This document shows positions 14,147 through 63,905 of a stretch of DNA of 64,000 bases, piece after piece. The DNA lies in NCBI GenBank assembly GCA_951406725.2, contig OX597819.1:31496001-31560000 (forward strand). Reading direction: 5' to 3'. The notes beneath the pieces were generated by a model. The model was not told the DNA's origin. It was given only the letters and a program-made list of their open reading frames with translations, and made no database searches. This DNA is from Octopus vulgaris. Taxonomy: Eukaryota. Each line of letters starts with the position of its first letter. Positions within the stretch are counted from its first letter, which is position 1. Both the position numbers and the translations under genes were made by a program.

Positions 14147-14417
14147 TTGGTACCTGAATGGAGTGAAAATTTAAAAACTGTTTCTTTCGGTGAGTTTTCT
14201 GAAGAAACTGGACCTAGCCACAGACTTTCCCAGAAGAGTAAAGCCTTAGACTATTTCTATTTACTTTTTCGAATGAGCCTATTTGAAATCATTACGCTAA
14301 ACGTAAACAAACCGAAAGAAAGGATAGTTTGTTATTTCCCACAATCTTAAATGAAATTAAGGCCTATTTTGCCATAAATATTATTATGGGTATCAGAAAG
14401 TTACCCAGAATAACAAA
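14147..14417 (+). pseudogene. piggyBac-like transposase N-terminal fragment inside the Helitron
   Basis: FSEETGP..ALDYFYLLF..LFEII and, in another frame, NEIKAYFAINIIMGIRKLPRI; resembles the EIKAF.G..I.MG..KLP motif of piggyBac/PGBD transposases. Confidence 0.7.
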
Positions 14418-15229
14418 TTCTATCGTAAAATTTTGTTGTATACCCAATTGAATATTAGCTAATAACCCATTTTCTATAGCGATGTTTGAACAAAATTTTA
14501 ATAATTTTACAGAAAGTTACCCAGAATAACAAATTCTATCGTAAAATTTTGTTGTATACCCAATTGAATATTAGCTAATAACCCATTTTCTATAGCGATG
14601 TTTGAACAAAATTTTAATAATTTTACAGAAAGTTACCCAGAATAACAAATTCTATCGTAAAATTTTGTTGTATACCCAATTGAATATTAGCTAATAACCC
14701 ATTTTCTATAGCGATGTTTGAACAAAATTTTAATAATTTTACAGAAAGTTACCCAGAATAACAAATTCTATCGTAAAATTTTGTTGTATACCCAATTGAA
14801 TATTAGCTAATAACCCATTTTCTATAGCGATGTTTGAACAAAATTTTAATAATTTTACAGAAAGTTACCCAGAATAACAAATTCTATCGTAAAATTTTGT
14901 TGTATACCCAATTGAATATTAGCTAATAACCCATTTTCTATAGCGATGTTTGAACAAAATTTTAATAATTTTACAGAAAGTTACCCAGAATAACAAATTC
15001 TATCGTAAAATTTTGTTGTATACCCAATTGAATATTAGCTAATAACCCATTTTCTATAGCGATGTTTGAACAAAATTTTAATAATTTTACAGAAAGTTAC
15101 CCAGAATAACAAATTCTATCGTAAAATTTTGTTGTATACCCAATTGAATATTAGCTAATAACCCATTTTCTATAGCGATGTTTGAACAAAATTTTAATAA
15201 TTTTACAGAAAGTTACCCAGAATAACAAA
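14394..15229. repeat. Tandem array, 116 bp x 7 plus 24 bp, units apparently identical
   Basis: Unit start CAGAAAGTTACCCAG recurs at 14394, 14510, 14626, 14742, 14858, 14974, 15090, 15206. Confidence 0.97.
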
Positions 15230-15523
15230 CGAGCCCTTCTGGGTATTAGCGCGCGTCTACGATGAGTCTACGATTTAAAAAACAATTACCATCATATTTT
15301 TCCATTTTAATGCATTTTTTTCGCTTTTATATAAGGGAAGTAACTCTCTAAAAATATCTACGATGTGTCAACGATTTAAAGAAAAATTTACCTTAATTTT
15401 TTTTTCAATTTTTAATGCATTTTTTTGCTACTTTTTGGCTATAACTCTCTAAAAATGCTTATATAGTTATTTCCCTTACAACCCGAGCAACGCCGGGCGA
15501 TACTGCTAGTATATATATATATG

Positions 15524-42109: not shown

Positions 42110-42202
42110 ATTGATTTCGAAGTTTGGTACAATTTAAGGGGTAGGGTAAGTCGATGTCATTGGCCTTAATTTTCAACTGGTATTTATTTTATCGACCTCG
42201 GC
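42110..42202 (-). mobile_element. SINE-B 3' half abutting the Tx1-like element
   Basis: Reverse complement GCCGAGGTCGATAAAATAAATACCAGTTG..ATCGACTTACCCTACCCC..GAAATCAATA. Confidence 0.7.
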
Positions 42203-42204
42203 TG

Positions 42205-45200
42205 CTAACTGATTTTCATCGAAGTGAAGTGTCTCCCCAAGGCCGTCATCATTCCTCGCCTCTACCAACCTTCTATAAAAGAACGAAGTAGAACCCCCGC
42301 CGCTGGTATTGCCCGTGCGAGAGAGAAACCGGAATGCCTGTCGGTACTCCATGTTCCACTCGCTGTACTTTGGTCTACGTTGGATCCATGGCTCTAGTTC
42401 ACTAAAGCTAGAGAACCTAGGAAGTAGCCATCTGACGAACAGAGACCACACCTATTCACCATCCAGGTAGAGCCACAGATGCCTGAGCCTCAGTGCTAAT
42501 TTGCACATCAACAGCCAAGGCATCCCTAGCCCACCCTTTAGCGAGTGTTGGCAGCAGACAGAGCGCTTCACAAGCGGACTTTTACGCTTCCACGAAAAGG
42601 GGAAAAGGAGCCGTTCCAACTTGTTTAGCCACGAAACGGGAGAAGGCACGACGGTTAGGCGGTAGGTAATCACAGAAGCGATAAACACTTCTGCTACCTC
42701 CATCCTCCCTTTCAAGGATAACCACCGCCCAGACCAGGTCTGAGTTAGGTGAGTCACCTTGCTCGCCACCTCGCCCCAATTCTTCTCTACCTGGAGGTCT
42801 GGTCTAAATCAACCCCCTAGCATTTTAACCAGTCCTTCCGTCTAACGCCCCACGACACTGTTGGAAGGCATCAACTTGCCTCTCCTGGTACCAAGTTGCA
42901 AGCCGACTGATTTCTTTCCGTTAATTTTTGCTCCTGCCACTGCCTCGTATTCCTTGATGGCTTCACCCACAATTTGTAGGTGATCCACCTCGGACATGAT
43001 GATAGTGATGTCATCCGCAAAGGCTGTGACCGCCCTCTAATTTTCTAGATCGCGCGGAAGCCCCCCCCCCCCCCATCTGACCGATGCAGAAAAGGCTTAA
43101 GAGCCAATACGTGCAGAAAGGGAGAGAGGAGACATCCTTGACGAACTGAGCACTTGATGATGAACGTTTTCCAAAAGAAACCGTTCATCCGAACGATCGA
43201 ATCGATGTTGCCGTACAAAGCAATGATCCAGCTGCAGAAGACGGGGCCAAACCCGAACGCTGCGAGGACCGTCACCAGGTACCGATGGTCAACCCTATCG
43301 AACGCCTTAGATTGGTCTAAATGTACCAATGCCCCACCCTTGCCAGTAACCCTACTAACCCTCTCTAAGGTGTAGCGTATAAGGTGGAGATTATCGTGTA
43401 TAGATCTGCCGGGAACGGCCCACGTTTGTGCCTCCTCGAAGAGTCTATCCACGACACGCGTCAACCTTCTTGCTAACACCTTGGCCATAATCTTCATCTC
43501 TGTGTTAAGCAGAGTGACGGGCCAGAAATCGTCTATACTAACCCCCTTATTTGGGTTCTTTCTAAGCAGCGTCACCACTCCCCAGCTCACAGATTTGGGA
43601 ACAAACTCGTTCTGCTGTCAGTTCGTGAAGATGCAAGCCAGCAGGTGCCCAAACAAGTCTGGCATACTACAGTAAAGTTCGTAGGGAAGGCCATCTAGAC
43701 TCGGTGACTTATCCCCGCCGCAGTCCGCCAGAGCCTCCCCAACCTCCGCAGCTGTAATCGGTCCTTCACAGCACTCCGCATCCCGCCCCAAGAGACGCGA
43801 CAAACCGGCGAGGAAGTCCGTAAGGCCACTCTTACACTCCGGTCCGTTTCTTTCCCACGAAAAGCAGTGCGAAATGCTCCTAAAAGACCTTGCATATCTC
43901 CGCGGCTTCGTTTATCAAGTTCCTTTGATCATTCATCAAAGACCCTATAGAATTTTTATTGCCACATTGGGCCTCTATCACACGGGCCCATCCAGCGGCT
44001 TTGATTCCTTCCTGTCCTACTGCACGTTGCTTAGCCCTGACTACGCACCCCTCATATTTACCCTCGATGTGTTGATTCAAAATCAATCTTGCAGCCAAGA
44101 CTCGGGGCGCGGATTCAGATCTCAGTGCTTCATCTAAGTCCTTAACTAAGGCCCTTTCTGTTCTATTTTTCCTAGCTACTAATTTTTTTACTAAACCTAA
44201 TGGACTCAAATTTAATGGCTCTTTTAAGGGCATATAATATCCATTCAGTGCGACCTGAGGTTATGTAGGAAACGGGCTTGTTTCCAAGTTGATCTCAGGC
44301 TGCGCACATTTAAACATCCAATCTTAAGAATGTCCATAAAAAGTTTTTTTTTCAAATACTCACCCCTTCACGATCTTTATCTTCCGGGGCTTGCGGAGTA
44401 CTATTGGTGAGGCCCTCATAAATTTGGGAAGAAAATCTTTCCTTATGGGCATAATGTCTGTTTCATATTCTTTTTTGAATAAATTGTAGCGAATTCTAGT
44501 TATCGAATAAATTAACACGTCTTCGGGAATTCTATTTTCGAATTTATGTGTAATGTCAATGGAATCCTTTGATTCTCTTAACTTTTGCAGTAGTGTTTTA
44601 TTTCGTACGGTTACTGCAGTATCGTTATTATCTGCGTGGATTGGGTGGGACTTGGGCTGGGCAGATGTTTTAAATTCTGTACGTTCTTATATATTTTTTT
44701 TGGTTTTTGCATGTGGGACTGTTGGGGGTGGATAGATTCCCCCCACTTTTTTTCCACTCTCCCCACTTGTTCACATTCCATTTCACTCTCCGTCTCAGTT
44801 GTTACATCCTCACTTTCTTCCTCTTTTGTAATTTCCTCTTGGTTTTCTTTTTCAAGTGGGTTTTTTTTTTCGGGAAGAGGTTTGCACTCAGATCTTATGT
44901 GGCCCTTTTGGTCACACTTGAAGCATCGAGGCTTCCCCCTCCCCCTTGACTATTACTCGTAATCTCACTTCCCCCCACCTGAATTCGATTATATTTTCGA
45001 GATCTGCAGGGGCTGCTTGAATTAATAATTCGAAGCTTTGTCCCTGCAAATTTTGAAGTTCTGTAGTTTGTGCATGGAGGATTGTAATTTTGTCCTCCAA
45101 GCCCGATGTGATAGCCGCTACTAGCCAAGCAGTGTCCACCTCTGGTGGTATGTCTTCCACCCAGATCTTGAAAGTGTGTCTTCCCAGATACGTTGAAAGG

Positions 45201-45915
45201 AGAACAATTTCTGCTGTTTTCAGCGGACTTGTGGACGCCTGATTGGGTTTTTCTTCCGATTGAAAACGCACCTTAATCGTTTCAAAACGTTGTCCTCTTG
45301 TTATATATTTGATGTCCGACCACTTAGGTTTCAGGCAGAACTCCACAGTTTCTTTGGATGCTATATCCAGCTTTTTTTTGTTTAATTAAGAAACTTTTAT
45401 AAATAATTGTGCCTCGTAGGCTATTTCACTGGGAGGGGCAACTTTAGCTTCGTCCCCTCCCTTTAATCATTCCTTTAAATTTTATAAGACCTTCGACTCC
45501 GTATTGTATGTTACGCTTTTTTTTTTTTATATCTCAGTTGCTTGGGCGAAGCTAACATTTCCTTTTACAAATTGTTCTGCCGTTGGCATGTCTCTCAATT
45601 CCATGCTCAAGGCGGTTTTTGCTAGTGCTAGGACCAAAACTGGTGCAGGGACTGGCTTCATTAGATATTTTCACAGGTGATTTATCCATGCTTTTTTTTT
45701 TTTTGCTTTGATTTTACAGTAAATTTATTTGCACGAATCAATTTCCACCCTCATACAAGGGGGAAAACAAAACAACACAAGTCTGCCCTCGGCAGATAAT
45801 AAATTGTTCCAAACAAACAGTGTAATAACAGTTTCAACAAACAAATATTAACAGTAAAATGTACAAAAATTCGCGATAATCACTAACCGTAAAAAAGACG
45901 ACCGACACATCAGCT
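42205..45915 (-). mobile_element. Tx1-like (L1 clade) LINE no. 1, decayed, 3' end missing
   Basis: ORF1 remnant with zinc knuckle CFKCDQKGHIRSEC (44884-44925); ORF2 begins MDILKIGCLNVRSLRS at 44337 (APE start); RT motifs KSPSLDGLPYE, PVTLLNTEMKIMAKVLARRL, LDQSKAFDRVDH, SVRQGCLLSP, AFADDIT. Confidence 0.9.
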
Positions 45916-45933
45916 GGTGTGCTGACGATTCTG

Positions 45934-46075
45934 AATTCTTTATTACTCACAAGGGGCGAAATACAGATAGGACAATATAAGACAATACAAACATGTGGGG
46001 AGGTGAAAACGAATGAAAAGGTGAAATGGAAAAATGGAGGATGTAATGATAACACACGGCCCACATCCGGGCGCC
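45934..46075 (-). mobile_element. Putative LINE 3' UTR and terminus (shares ~55 nt with SINE-B tail type 2)
   Basis: Reverse complement is pyrimidine-rich and ends TTGTCCTATCTGTATTTCGCCCCTTGTGAGTAATAAAGAATT; no SINE-B body upstream of the shared tail. Confidence 0.6.
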
Positions 46076-46149
46076 ATCATTTCACTTTTTGATTACTTTT
46101 TTAAAAATCGGAAATGTTAATATTAAAGTCTGATTAAAAATTTTCAATA

Positions 46150-46569
46150 CTTTACTCTTTTACTCATTTACTCTTTTACTTGTTTCAGTCGTTTGACTGC
46201 GGCCATGCTGGAGCACCGCCTTTTTAGTCGAGCAAATCGCCCCCGGGACTTATTCTTTTGTAAGCCCAGTACTTATTCTATCGGTCTCTTTTGCCGAACC
46301 GCTAAGTGACGGGGACGTAAACACACCAGCATCGGTTGTCAAGCAATGCTAGGGGGACAAACACAGACACACAAACATATACACACACACATATATATAT
46401 ACATATATACGACAGGCTTCTTTTAGTTTCCGTCTACCAAATCCACTCACAAGGCATTGGTCGGCCCGGGGCTATAGCAGAAGACACTTGCCCAAGATGC
46501 CACGCAGTGGGATGAACCGAACCATGTGGTTTGTTAGCAAGCTACTTACCACACAGCCACTCCTGCGCC
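46150..46569 (-). mobile_element. SINE-A, full length
   Basis: End-to-end alignment with the other copies. Confidence 0.92.
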
Positions 46570-46762
46570 TTATTATGTATTTAATTCTTTTTATTTTTTT
46601 CTATTTTGATTTCGATGTATTTCACTTTCTCATAATCCTCCATTTTCTTTTTATCTGTTGTATCGATTATAGCAATATTCCAAATGCATGGGGATTTGGT
46701 TCTAAGCATTTACCAGTCTCGCACTTTCCAAATTCTTGATTTCGGTTAACAATTGTTTATTC

Positions 46763-46973
46763 ATTACTCTTTTTACTCTTTTACTTGTTTCAGTCATTTG
46801 ACTGCGGCCATGCTGGAGCACCGCCTTTAGTCGAGCAAATCGACCCCGGGACTTATTCTTTGTAAGCCCAGTACTTATTCTATCGGTCTCGTTTACCGAA
46901 CCGCTAAGTGACGGGGACGTAAACACACCAGCATCGGTTGTCAAGCAATGTTAGGGGGACAAACACAGACACA

Positions 46974-47024
<51 letters not shown>

Positions 47025-47212
47025 GTATATATATATATATACATATATACGACAGGCTTCTTTCAGTTTCCGTCTACCAAATCCACTCACAAGGCATTGG
47101 TCGGCCCGGGGCTATAGCAGAAGACACTTGCTCAAGATGCCACACAGTGGGACTGAACCCGGAACCATGTGGTTGGTTAGCAAGCTACTTACCACACAGC
47201 CACTCCTGCGCC
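46763..47212 (-). mobile_element. SINE-A, full length
   Basis: End-to-end alignment with the other copies. Confidence 0.92.
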
Positions 47213-47215
47213 ATT

Positions 47216-48470
47216 AGTTCATAAAAATTGATATTTTTGTTACTTTGTTTTTTTGTTTTATTTTACGGGGAGGGGGTTGTGAGTTTTGGGACACCCGTGA
47301 GTGCATGCAAGTTTTTTCCATGTCAGCCGGAGTAGAGGGAGGACCGGTGGTTGCTGGGGAAGGGTGTGACAAAGTGGGCTTGGGTGGGAGCTGGGTGGGA
47401 CTCATCACTGCCAATTTGTGTCTTCCTCTTTTACTTTTCTATTTTCCCCATCCTTCTTCGTCTCTTACATCCTTTGATGTTGTCTCTGTGTTGGTTTCTG
47501 GTGGAGGCGGAGGTGTAGTTTCCTTTTTGCTTTTGGTGTCAGCGGGAAGTAACACCTAGGGATTCTACCCTCTACTTTAACCTTCAGCACCACATCTTTG
47601 ACCATGATGGTTTCAATCATATTTTCAATGTCTTCAGGGTTGCTTGGATCGGTATCTCCAGCCCTTGCCCCTGCCAATTCTTATGAGTCGTAAACGTGGC
47701 TTGGAGGACAACCATTTTCTCCTCCAAGCCTAACAGGATCGCGTCTACTAACCAGGCTGCATCTATCTCTGCAGGTACGTCTTCCAAGGTATGTGGGTAG
47801 AAGCACTACCTCATTCGTCTTCAGCGGGGTTACATAGTGCAACCGGGCGGTTTCTGCATCCCTGAGCCGCACCTCCACCGTGCCGTACTTCTTGTCTCTG
47901 CTTATATGTATTATTTCCCCTTTATATGCATTATTTAACGCTTTTTCTATTTGACTCTGCGTCATTATTTCAAGTTTTTGGCTGTCCACCGAAAGCATTT
48001 GATGAACAATTAATTTCTCCTTTCGACATAACATGACAACTTGGGGCGGGAACACATTTACATTGTTTCCGTCTTTTTTCAATAGTTAATTAAACTTTCC
48101 AATCTGGTTCAAATTAATATTTTTGTGGTGGCTTTTAGCTGCCTTTGCAAAATTCATTTTGTCTACGTTGTCAATTGATCTAAGGAGTTCCTCGTCTGAG
48201 GAGGAATACTTAGACGAGCTCATACTACTAGTATAGGATATCCTTGAAGCTACGCAGCCCCCTACAAAATGGGAACAGCGTAAAACAATTCAGCCGTAAA
48301 ACAGCAAAACAAGTGTTCAACAATGCAATACAATAACAAATTAAACACAATTTTCACAATTTTCAATTTTTCACTGACCTTTTATACGCGAGACTATTTT
48401 CTATTCAATGGTTAACCATGTTTTGTATCCATTTGTAAAAATAAAGACGACCGGCAAAATAAAGACGACA
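47216..48470 (-). mobile_element. Tx1-like LINE no. 2, 5' UTR and ORF1 remnant
   Basis: ORF 47681-48082 TPLKTNEVVLLPTYLGRRT matches ORF1 of LINE no. 1 (SPLKTAEIVLLSTYLGRHT); KVKVEGRIPRCY marks the start of the zinc knuckle; both 5' leaders contain CGGTCGTCTTT. Confidence 0.8.
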
Positions 48471-48501
48471 GGCGTGCTGACGTTTCTGCTAGCTTGCCGC
48501 C
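48471..48501 (-). mobile_element. SINE-B head interrupted by the Tx1-like LINE
   Basis: Reverse complement GGCGGCAAGCTAGCAGAAACGTCAGCACGCC, 28/31 identical to the SINE-B head at 63464-63494. Confidence 0.85.
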
Positions 48502-60554: not shown

Positions 60555-60975
60555 TATTTCTTTACTATCCACAAGGAGCTAAATACAGAGGGGAACAAAC
60601 AAGGACAGACAAACGGATTAAGTCGATTAGATCGACCCCAGTGCGTAACTGGTACTTAATTTATCGACCCCGTAAGGATGAAAGGCAAAGTCGACCTCGG
60701 CGGAATTTGAACTCAGAACGTAACGGCAGACGAAATACCTATTTCTTTATTACCCACAAGGGGCTAAACACGGAGAGGACAAACAAGGACAGACATAACG
60801 GTATTAAGTCGATTATATCGACCCCAGTGCGTAACGGGTACTTAATTTATCGACCCCGTAAGGATGAAAGGCAAAGTCGACCTCGGCGGAATTTGAACTC
60901 AGAACGTAACGGCAGACGAAATACCGCTAAGCATTTCGTCCGGCGTGCTAACGATTCTACCAGCTTACCGCCTCT
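60555..60975 (-). mobile_element. SINE-B tail-type-2 dimer (one head, two ~185-bp body+tail units)
   Basis: 14-bp TSD CCCAGTCTAATACC at 60541-60554 and 60976-60989. Confidence 0.9.
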
Positions 60976-61199
60976 CCCAGTCTAATACCATCACTTGGCA
61001 CCTTGAGTGCCTTCAGCGGAGTCCATTCTGATGCGAGCATTCGGGATAGGTCGGTCTCTGGTTTGAGGATATCTTCCAACCCGCTCCCATCATTCTCGGA
61101 TGCCTCCATAAAGAATCGCAAGAACTGCCTTCTTTGTTGACTGAAAAGGAAATTAGTAGGATCGCCTGATGGACCTGATGTCACGAGGATGGCACTCTG

Positions 61200-61513
61200 G
61201 TACTCTGTCGGTTATGACAACGAGGATTCCAGTTGATTCCACCAACGGAACAGACTGTTCGTGAAATTAACGTACAAGTGGCTGAGCACTCCGCAAAGTG
61301 TACTCTTCACGTAGTTCTCAGGGAAGTTCAGCGTGACACAGAATGTGACAAAGCTGGCCCTTTCACCAACAGGTACGACTCATTTTTGCCAGCTAAGTGG
61401 ACTGGAGCAACGTGAAAATGAAGTGTCTTGCTCAAGTACTCAGCGCGTCGCTGAGTATCGAATTCATGACCTTATGCCCGTGAACTGACTACCTTAACCA
61501 CAAAGCTACGCGC
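61200..61513 (-). mobile_element. tRNA-derived SINE, fourth family (diverged)
   Basis: Reverse complement GCGCGTAGCTTTGTGGTTAAGG..GAATTCGATAC..CTTGAGCAAGACACTT; a related fragment lies at ~51915-52200. Confidence 0.6.
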
Positions 61514-62919
61514 ACAAGGAAACATATACAGTAGAATATATCACTATCTCGCTTCACTTACAAATATTACCATGTAACACGTAGGAACGACAGAATCAAC
61601 TGAATAACAAATAGTAAACCTTCTGATACCGAGTTACGTCCCTTTATGTTTTTTCAAATTTTATCAAGGTTCGCCTTTTATTCATCCAGAGTCAATAAAA
61701 TAAACAAGTCAAATACAGCAGTTGATTTCCTCGACTATGCACTTCTCTCTTGAATGTGTGACATTATGCTAGAAATTATTTATTTGTGTTGCTTTTATGT
61801 TGTAGTCGTTTAGCATCAGACCTCTAATGAAAATCGACTAATCTATCTTATTTTAAGGAATAGTGTATCTAGGATTATATTATCCAATGTGTCCTTCGTA
61901 TCTTTATGATGATAGGGTTTGATTTGAGGAAAATTTAGCTTCTATTTTTAGGAGGACGAACATCCACGTACAAAAACCGCTCATTTATGAAGAAAACAAT
62001 TAAATATACAGTGATGTGCGCAGTTACTAAATATTTTCGTAAGTGGTTTTGTCTTCTTGATAGATGATATTTATTACATATTTACATCAAATAACCGGAA
62101 ATAAGTGTCGACCATGCAATAAGATCTTGATATCAAAAATATGCAGTCTGCTTTGAAATAGATTCAAATCACATTTCTGCCACTTCTGACCACTGTAACT
62201 ATTACCACACTTGGCTGCGTGGGTTTGAAAGTAAATAGAGAAGGAAAATGCAATATTGTTTTCTGGTTTCAAATTTTGGTACGGTAATAGAAGGGAATAA
62301 GTCACTTGCATCGAACCCAATGATCAACTGATACTTTATTGTATCGCTCCCGAGAAGCAGAGTAGACCTCGGTGGAATTTGAGCTGGAAACATACAAGCG
62401 GAAGAAATGCCGCTAAGCATTTCGTCCTGCGTGCAAACGATTTTGTTAGCTCGCCACCATTTTGGCTTGAAATAACTACCCTTTATTTCCTATTTACAGA
62501 TCCTGTTTCCCTGAACCACATCTCACTAACTCAGAACATAAAGCCGGAAGAAATGCTGAGAAGTACTTTGTCCGGCATGCCGACAATTATGCCAGCTTAC
62601 TGCTTTAATATTCTTTTCTACTTTAGGTACAAGGCCTGAAATCTTTGCTTACATCGATTCCAGTACCTGGCTGGTACTTATTTTATCGACCCTTTATATT
62701 ACTTTAATTGTTTCTGCTATAAGTACAAATCCTGAAATTGTGAGGGAGAGGACTGACTATTCGATTGGATCAAGCCCAGTGCTCAACTGGTACCTATTTT
62801 TTTTTTGGAGGGGGGGGCTGAAAAAGATGAAAGGCAAAGCCGACCTCGGCAGAATTTGAGCATACCTTTGGTACAGCCGGAAACAATTCAGTTAATATTG
62901 GTTTCAAAGTTTCGTACGA

Positions 62920-63111
62920 AGCTTGCAATTTCGGGAGAGGGCTAGTCGATTACATCGACTCCTGTGCTTAACTGATTCTTATTTTATGGGCGCCGAAAGG
63001 TTGTAATGCTAAGTTGACCCCGGCAGCATTTAAACTCAGAAGATTAAGTCGGAAGAAAAGCCGCTAAGCATTTTGGCCGGCGAGATAACGATTCTGCCAG
63101 CTCACCGCCTT
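62920..63111 (-). mobile_element. SINE-B (diverged), last of several decayed copies in 62290-63111
   Basis: Reverse complement head AGGCGGTGAGCTGGCAGAATCGTTATCTCGCCGG. Confidence 0.75.
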
Positions 63112-63214
63112 AATATTGCTTGAAATAAAAATCTAGAGAGAGTGAGAAAGAGGGGGAGTGGGAGAGAGATAGAGTGTGTATGCCTATGCATGAATGCGTG
63201 AGTGAAATACTACA

Positions 63215-63905
63215 ATATGTAAGGTCTATAAGGTGGCGATTTGGCAGGAACGTTAGCACGCCGCGCGAAATGCTTAGCGAAATTTCGTCTGCCGTTACGT
63301 TGTGAGTTCAAATTCCGCCGAGGTCGACTTTGCCTTTCATCCTTTTGGAGGCCGATAAATTAAGTACCAGTTGTGTACTGGGGTCGATGTAATCGACTGT
63401 CCCCTCCCCCAAAATTTCGGGCCTTGTGCCTAGAGTAGAAAAGGATATATGTAAGGTCTATAAGGCGGCGAGCTGGCAGAAACGTTAGCACGCCGGGCGA
63501 AATGCTTAGCGAAATTTCGTCTGCCGTTACGTTGTGAGTTCAAATTCCGCCGAGGTCGACTTTGCCTTTCATCCTTTTGGAGGCCGATAAATTAAGTACC
63601 AGTTGCGTACTGGGATCGATCTAATCGACTGTCCCCTCCCCCAAAATTTCGGGCCTTGTGCCTAGAGTAGAAAAGGATATATGTAAGGTCTATAAGGCGG
63701 CGAGCTGGCAGAAACGTTAGCTACCCGGGCGAAATGCTTAGTGGTATTTCGTCTGTCTTTATGTTCTAAGTTCAAATTACGCCGAGGTCGACTTTGCCTT
63801 TCATCCTTTTGGGGGTCGATAAATTAAGTACCAGTTACGCACTGGGGTCGATCTAATCGACTGGTCCCCTCCACAAAATTTTCGGGCCTTGTGCCTAGAG
63901 CAGAA
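63215..63905 (+). mobile_element. Head-to-tail SINE-B trimer (tail type 1), 232-bp period
   Basis: Linker ATATGTAAGGTCTATA at 63215, 63447 and 63679, each followed by a full SINE-B. Confidence 0.92.

Follow-up and report, generated by a model that had tools for sequence, protein, structure and literature searches.

The stretch of DNA described here, hereafter the window, spans 64,000 nucleotides of the Octopus vulgaris genome (contig OX597819.1, positions 31,496,001–31,560,000) and contains on its minus strand two long interspersed nuclear elements (LINEs) placed one behind the other in the head of a short interspersed nuclear element (SINE) of a family called SINE-B. After searching the genome (2.8 Gb, 227 contigs), we regard it as probable that an old LINE of the L1 group, likely of the Tx1 clade, and a partner carrying only the first open reading frame (ORF1) repeatedly inserted at one site of the SINE-B head via endonuclease recognition. 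We favor this explanation because of the position of the junctions, the 17–18 bp duplication that accompanies them, the existence of two tandem stacks and the lineage-specific targets of sister LINEs. Labels such as L059 or L107 designate other genomic stretches examined, and C3, C18 and C29 are contigs of the same genome.

Layout of the tandem insertion

Read on the minus strand, the locus opens with the first 31 nt of a SINE-B (48501–48471), which match the intact SINE-B at 63465–63690 and terminate in CAGAAACGTCAGCACGCC; the last 18 nt of this head constitute the upstream copy of the target-site duplication (TSD). LINE no. 2 follows immediately (48470–45934). It belongs to what we call family N, measures about 1.65 kb once later insertions are subtracted, has a LINE-type 5′ end and 3′ tail, and is collinear with an intact copy at L107 (79–87% identity). 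Two SINE-A copies, both recognized by self-BLAST and as gaps relative to L107, interrupt it on the same strand: one is a later insertion at 47212–46750 and the other lies at 46570–46145. The 3′ tail (45985–45934) aligns with those of lineage A (the lineage of LINE no. 1), of sister LINE lineages and of one SINE-B subfamily. The first-pass annotation had taken LINE no. 2 for a Tx1-like LINE; the absence of any match to ORF2 makes it a non-autonomous element instead.

The second copy of the 18-bp target, CAGAATCGTCAGCACACC, at 45933–45916, separates family N from LINE no. 1. The latter begins with a 5′ untranslated region (UTR) and a decayed ORF1 (45915–44345), recognized by homology to other ORF1 sequences and by its zinc knuckle (zf-CCHC, E 9.6e-05); the same 5′ end is found in L059. 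Its decayed ORF2 (44344–42203; RVT_1, E 1.2e-18) was mapped on the intact ORF2 of a sister element at L110, of whose 1138 residues it keeps 1–37, the start of the apurinic-type endonuclease (APE) domain, and 282–962, which include the reverse transcriptase (RT), at 46–70% identity. The residues in between are deleted, and the frame is cut at residue 962, where the 3′ part of a SINE-B (42202–42110, from about SINE position 116) is joined to it. This remnant, with which the first-pass annotation ended its reading of the locus, does not mark a native 3′ junction: a deletion produced the joint at 42203, the 3′ end of LINE no. 1 is lost, and the 42202–42110 piece cannot be proven to stem from the same SINE copy as the 48501–48471 head.

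As the first-pass annotation had pointed out, the two 18-mers are identical at 16 of 18 positions and share a T-to-C variant that is missing from the intact heads of the window. This variant is absent from all eight other matches in the window and occurs at only 2 of the 78 SINE-B sites present in 600 kb of position-picked genome (60 stretches of 10 kb).

Junctions across the genome

Junction searches used queries taken from inside the LINEs only and scored the best candidates only, so that the counts are lower bounds and biased toward the kin of each query. For 5′ ends, the family-N query gave 12 matches at 11 loci, two of them without a 5′ end, and seven of the nine readable junctions fall at the SINE site; the lineage-A query gave six loci, two of them unreadable, with two of the remaining four at the site and two misses that are 73% identical to the query. 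Pooled, 9 of 13 readable 5′ junctions lie after the same SINE nucleotide, following ..TAGCACGCC as had been predicted from the window. An exact search with the 5′ motif returned five matches, all at the SINE site and all among the loci already counted.

The 3′ junctions had been predicted to precede CAGAA(A/T)CG, and are seen before (C/A)AGAA(A/T)CG at 7 of 13 independent family-N loci (15 matches plus one further locus, two being unreadable and two near-identical copies on C18 being counted once) and at 3 of 10 readable lineage-A ends. The lineage-A set consists of 14 rows of a tree (support 100/100), five of them unreadable, and the A-type end at L107; L118, whose flank is part of a SINE tail, was excluded. 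Among the six family-N misses, four belong to the most diverged matches (70–79%), and the flanks of the other two start with CAGAAC and AAGAG. The chance of a junction falling within 3 nt of the site is 0.00046 (78 sites per 1.2 million strand-bases), which gives binomial p values of 6e-28 for the 5′ ends (9/13), 7e-21 for the family-N 3′ ends (7/13) and 1e-08 for the lineage-A 3′ ends (3/10). Repeated use of the same SINE nucleotide thus stands, and the single fixed site first described becomes a strong preference rather than an absolute rule, with misses in a sub-branch of lineage A and in those copies that have diverged most. The safe-harbour role suggested for the site in the first-pass annotation would be no more than a speculative gloss.

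A preference of the enzyme for short (A/C)AGAA-type sites, with SINE-B acting simply as a common carrier, could be suggested by several off-target flanks that start with AAGA or CAGAA (L022, L047, L114, L116). However, SINE sites represent only 78 of the 4892 occurrences of [AC]AGAA (1.6%), vs. 7 of the 13 family-N insertions (p 4e-10), and we consider this explanation very unlikely. An equally small probability is given to tRNA genes being the true target, with the SINE head hit as a look-alike. The head does look tRNA-derived, and Dada DNA transposons are known to target tRNA A boxes (PMC3706591, available in part). Yet the best-scoring gene, the tRNA-Thr-like locus L235, matches the target at 10 of 18 positions, all 30 top-scoring tRNA genes, which cover few isotypes, carry at least 8 mismatches out of 18, and the 3′ flanks of target-site insertions that reach past the 18-mer lead into a SINE body, none of them into a tRNA gene. 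Rfam reported no tRNA match in window positions 60700–63900.

The SINEs downstream of the insertions have three different tail types, which fits independent insertions. These flanks also show that the SINE-like bases are more than a constant part of the LINE 5′ UTR, a possibility raised at the outset. Capture of an RNA polymerase III (Pol III) promoter by the LINE was likewise considered and is unlikely, as Pol III would be stopped by six consecutive T residues situated some 20 nt downstream of the start of the 5′ UTR.

The tandem arrangement recurs at L107 (C3), where an A-type 3′ end, a 17-mer, a whole family-N element and a second 17-mer follow one another, the two 17-mers being identical at 15 of 17 positions. 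L107 is therefore a second tandem stack, on another contig and with a 17-bp TSD, in keeping with the duplications of about 18 bp that had been predicted. A different arrangement is seen at L108 (2671–2720), where a 20-nt stub of a LINE 5′ end lies between two target copies, likely an insertion collapsed by microhomology. At L041 and L060, the sequences that precede two related LINE 5′ ends are alike over about 230 bp (81% identity), which would represent either a 5′ UTR of greater length or a further target repeat.

SINE-B as a probable passenger and target

SINE-B, possibly the octopus OR1/OR2 CORE-SINE, of which published papers speak, is itself linked to these LINEs. One of its subfamilies ends in 45–50 nt that align with the 3′ tail of this LINE group, the shared 3′ tail being a trait of LINE-SINE partners. 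A 4-bp hairpin is predicted in three of four tails, but its z-scores (−1.4 to 0.3) do not set it apart from shuffled sequences. The unbiased 600 kb contain 35 such tails, one of them of LINE type, and 13 of the 35 abut the interior of a SINE-B, of which 2 do so at the present target site and the other 11 at a second one, near position 50. Genome-wide, the pattern of tail plus target site has 439 near-exact matches (control, 0); of these junctions, 30 were inspected, and the tail belongs to a SINE in 27 of them and to a LINE in 3. A nested SINE-in-SINE with a duplicated target was found at the studied site at L305 (one of the four loci of one search) and at the second site at L165, L153 and L094. 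Tailed SINEs located outside other SINEs also have TSDs, often beginning with GGTAT or TATAT. The tailed SINE partner and the target are therefore likely one SINE family. The second hot site (L165, L153, L094, L149, L073) yields SINE arrays with a period of 184–187 bp; no LINE family directed at it was found.

The mechanism most likely to account for the LINE junctions is endonuclease-directed target-primed reverse transcription (TPRT), the established route for APE LINEs. The LINE endonuclease would recognize the DNA of the SINE-B head, nick it and prime reverse transcription. As read from the junctions, the first nick would fall on the bottom strand opposite G|CAGAA (SINE position 13/14), within an A-box-like motif that overlaps the target site, and the second on the top strand after ..GCACGCC (SINE position 31). 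The 3′ end of the RNA (..AAGAAUU) may pair with the primer via the common AGAAT. Each insertion would regenerate the 18-mer, so that a later element could land at the same site and build a stack. Family N, having ORF1 only, would borrow ORF2 in trans via the shared 3′ tail, and the SINE-B subfamily with the same tail was probably mobilized by these or sister enzymes, landing in SINE-B heads.

Several observations weigh against such targeting. The SINE site is missed by 4 of the 13 5′ junctions, and among 3′ ends by 6 of the 13 of family N and 7 of the 10 of lineage A. Both TSD copies are visible in two elements only, those of the window (18 bp) and L107 (17 bp). Nine copies without a 5′ end (L093–L095, L097–L102) show no SINE head 1–31 in the 400 bp upstream, and a TSD was not found around any truncated copy. 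We attribute the state of these 5′-less copies to deletions after insertion, given that elements whose 5′ end is intact often lack their 3′ end (L096, L103–L106 and LINE no. 1), which TPRT cannot produce. At 12 of 21 SINE-tail junctions the upstream head has the donor-type base and not the base present downstream, and at L307 a 31-nt head extension, with no downstream site, moved as a unit.

The last of these observations are those expected if the composites had arisen at the RNA level, either from one or a few master copies residing in a SINE or from an RT jump between SINE and LINE RNAs at the AGAAT microhomology, and had then been inserted elsewhere together with SINE flanks. The missing upstream heads of copies without a 5′ end, the donor-type head kept at many SINE-tail junctions and the head of L307, whose positions 1–31 are carried as a 5′ extension within an outer TSD, all speak for such chimeras or transductions. 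Against them, the two 18-mers of the window have a rare variant in common, the stacks hold only a 17–18-mer between elements, the downstream SINEs are of three tail types, and L305 reads as target head, full donor and remainder of the target. In addition, upstream heads match the downstream base at 9 of 21 junctions vs. a baseline of 3 of 25 (Fisher p 0.023, the downstream base being fixed by the search pattern). We judge an RNA-level origin to be improbable, though better placed than the two alternatives discussed above, and retain endonuclease-directed insertion for the LINEs.

The claim that SINE-B targets itself is weaker than the claim made for the LINEs, because the L307 head extension moved as a unit and because the single head of many SINE arrays, which fits a seamless 5′ joint, also fits tandem duplication, a dimeric master or RNA-level switching. 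We would give about even chances to a closed loop in which SINE-B owes its tail to a site-specific L1/Tx1-group LINE that cuts the SINE-B promoter, the SINE being at once passenger and target and inserting into its own family. If this were true, there would be tens of thousands of SINE-in-SINE arrays, resident Pol III promoters would be split and the family would be self-limiting. Movement of the tailed SINE by the same enzymes would moreover explain many nested SINE arrays through targeting, and would affect repeat annotation and dating in this genome.

Identity and relatives of the elements

Family N copies are collinear over about 1.65 kb, with pairwise identities of 78–90%, and the four copies tested all have ORF1 and no match to ORF2: this is a non-autonomous, ORF1-only family of HAL1 type. 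Its ORF1 DNA is only 67% identical to that of LINE no. 1 over the aligned piece, and family N is therefore a relative of LINE no. 1 and not its deletion product. HAL1 (half-L1) is likewise non-autonomous and ORF1-only, and was described for mammalian L1 (PMC5753468, available in part); family N differs in being site-preferring and in not being a simple deletion of LINE no. 1. For 83 SINE-B copies, the median identity to the majority sequence is 87%, and since family-N copies are 78–90% identical to one another, target and elements are of similar age.

Membership in the L1 group of non-LTR (long terminal repeat) elements is clear. LINE no. 1 carries the zf-CCHC zinc knuckle in a separate ORF1 and RVT_1 in ORF2, the TSDs of 18 bp in the window and 17 bp at L107 stay below the limit of about 20 bp, and the intact 1138-aa ORF2 of L110 contains APE (PF03372), RT (PF00078) and C-terminal zinc-binding (PF13966) domains. 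The best match in the PDB is LINE-1 ORF2p (E 7e-60, vs. 3e-23 for R2), and an RT homologue in Argonauta is 66% identical. The APE fragments of lineage A are too short for Pfam, yet were matched by tblastn. By a small margin, and with a single reference, the top APE match is the L1/Tx1L-loop chimera 2v0r. The APE hairpin is reported to shape target choice in L1 (PMC1950540, available in part); here, its loop has 9 residues between anchors vs. 11 in Tx1L (one reference only), and the hairpin differs between LINE lineages of this genome, which is a lead only. No Tx1-labelled sequence appeared among the results of homologue searches, a cluster look-up and Atlas searches. According to the available part of PMC13295347, site-specific LINEs occur in no APE clades other than Tx1 and R1, and lineage-specific sequence targets are a Tx1-clade trait; placement in this clade is thus likely, on the grounds of site specificity rather than phylogeny.

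In this genome, the targets (SINE site, Mariner site or (TC)n) differ from branch to branch. In a tree of 53 rows, one 11-row branch ends before (TC)-rich repeats, and in a 19-row branch 10 rows are followed by the beginning of a Mariner-like transposase gene, the Mariner label being a reading of the translated flank. Mariner-inserted sister copies (L067, L069, L070, L071, L077, L122, L126, L129, L131, L133, L137, as well as L261, L262 and L273) share one insertion point, a single base just upstream of the transposase start codon, and 3 of 29 further Mariner copies have a LINE-type 3′ end at that base. Target choice thus depends on the lineage, in agreement with what has been published on Tx1 elements of crocodilians (PMC4494074, available in part). 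A motif common to the SINE and Mariner targets was sought and rejected: empty Mariner sites, ..TTTTTCAC-CGTTG, share only CGTT with the SINE target, and out of register. L110:2624–7644 (C29), to which the intact ORF2 belongs (APE, RT, zf-RVT), represents a young sister family flanked by (TC)n, which may have been active recently. Two further sister branches have constant 3′ flanks (L088–L091; L076, L080, L130 and L136).

The closest parallel is found in crocodilians, where Tx1-Mar LINEs and SINEU show, as here, L1-group lineages with a preference for fixed positions within a different transposon, a SINE that shares this preference, two hot sites in a single target and related lineages that hit microsatellites (PMC4494074). 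The crocodilian target is a Mariner DNA transposon, others being Harbinger and LTR elements, whereas here it is a SINE head; unlike SINEU, the passenger SINE here is a subfamily of the target itself and bears the LINE 3′ tail. Tx1L of Xenopus, Keno, Kibi, Koshi and Dewa are also sequence-specific APE LINEs, and the young sister lineage sits before (TC)n as Kibi does, but their targets are a piggyBac derivative, U2 small nuclear RNA genes, microsatellites and tRNA spacers (PMC4494074, PMC3706591). Dada resembles the present LINEs in its fixed site within an A-box region, that of tRNA genes, and in its tandem stacking, but uses a DNA transposase, leaves a 6–7 bp TSD and targets true RNA genes (PMC3706591). 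The word SINE is absent from the main text of that paper, and the word “target” does not occur in PMC13282606. In the literature searched, as far as the sources were available, Tx1 targets comprise RNA genes, microsatellites, satellites, DNA transposons and LTR elements, with no SINE target for Tx1 elements and nothing on such targeting in octopus. The SINE head is thus apparently an undescribed class of target; the chemistry would be ordinary, and the identity of partner and target is the unusual twist.

A SINE head would thereby join the list of site-specific LINE targets, with, by extrapolation, about 360,000 such sites in the genome. Close relatives within one genome, whose respective targets are a SINE, a Mariner element and (TC)n, would also form a natural series in which to look for the endonuclease residues that switch specificity. 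Only a few SINE-targeting copies were found, all of them old and decayed, and their direct use as a tool is therefore limited.

Other features of the window include the degraded remains of a coding sequence (49480–48520, minus strand), which lie upstream of the SINE head and may resemble a Penelope-like RT. Three 232-bp SINE-B units lie head-to-tail at 63215–63905, with 93% matches, and a tandem array of near-identical units with a period of 116 bp occupies 14278–15389.

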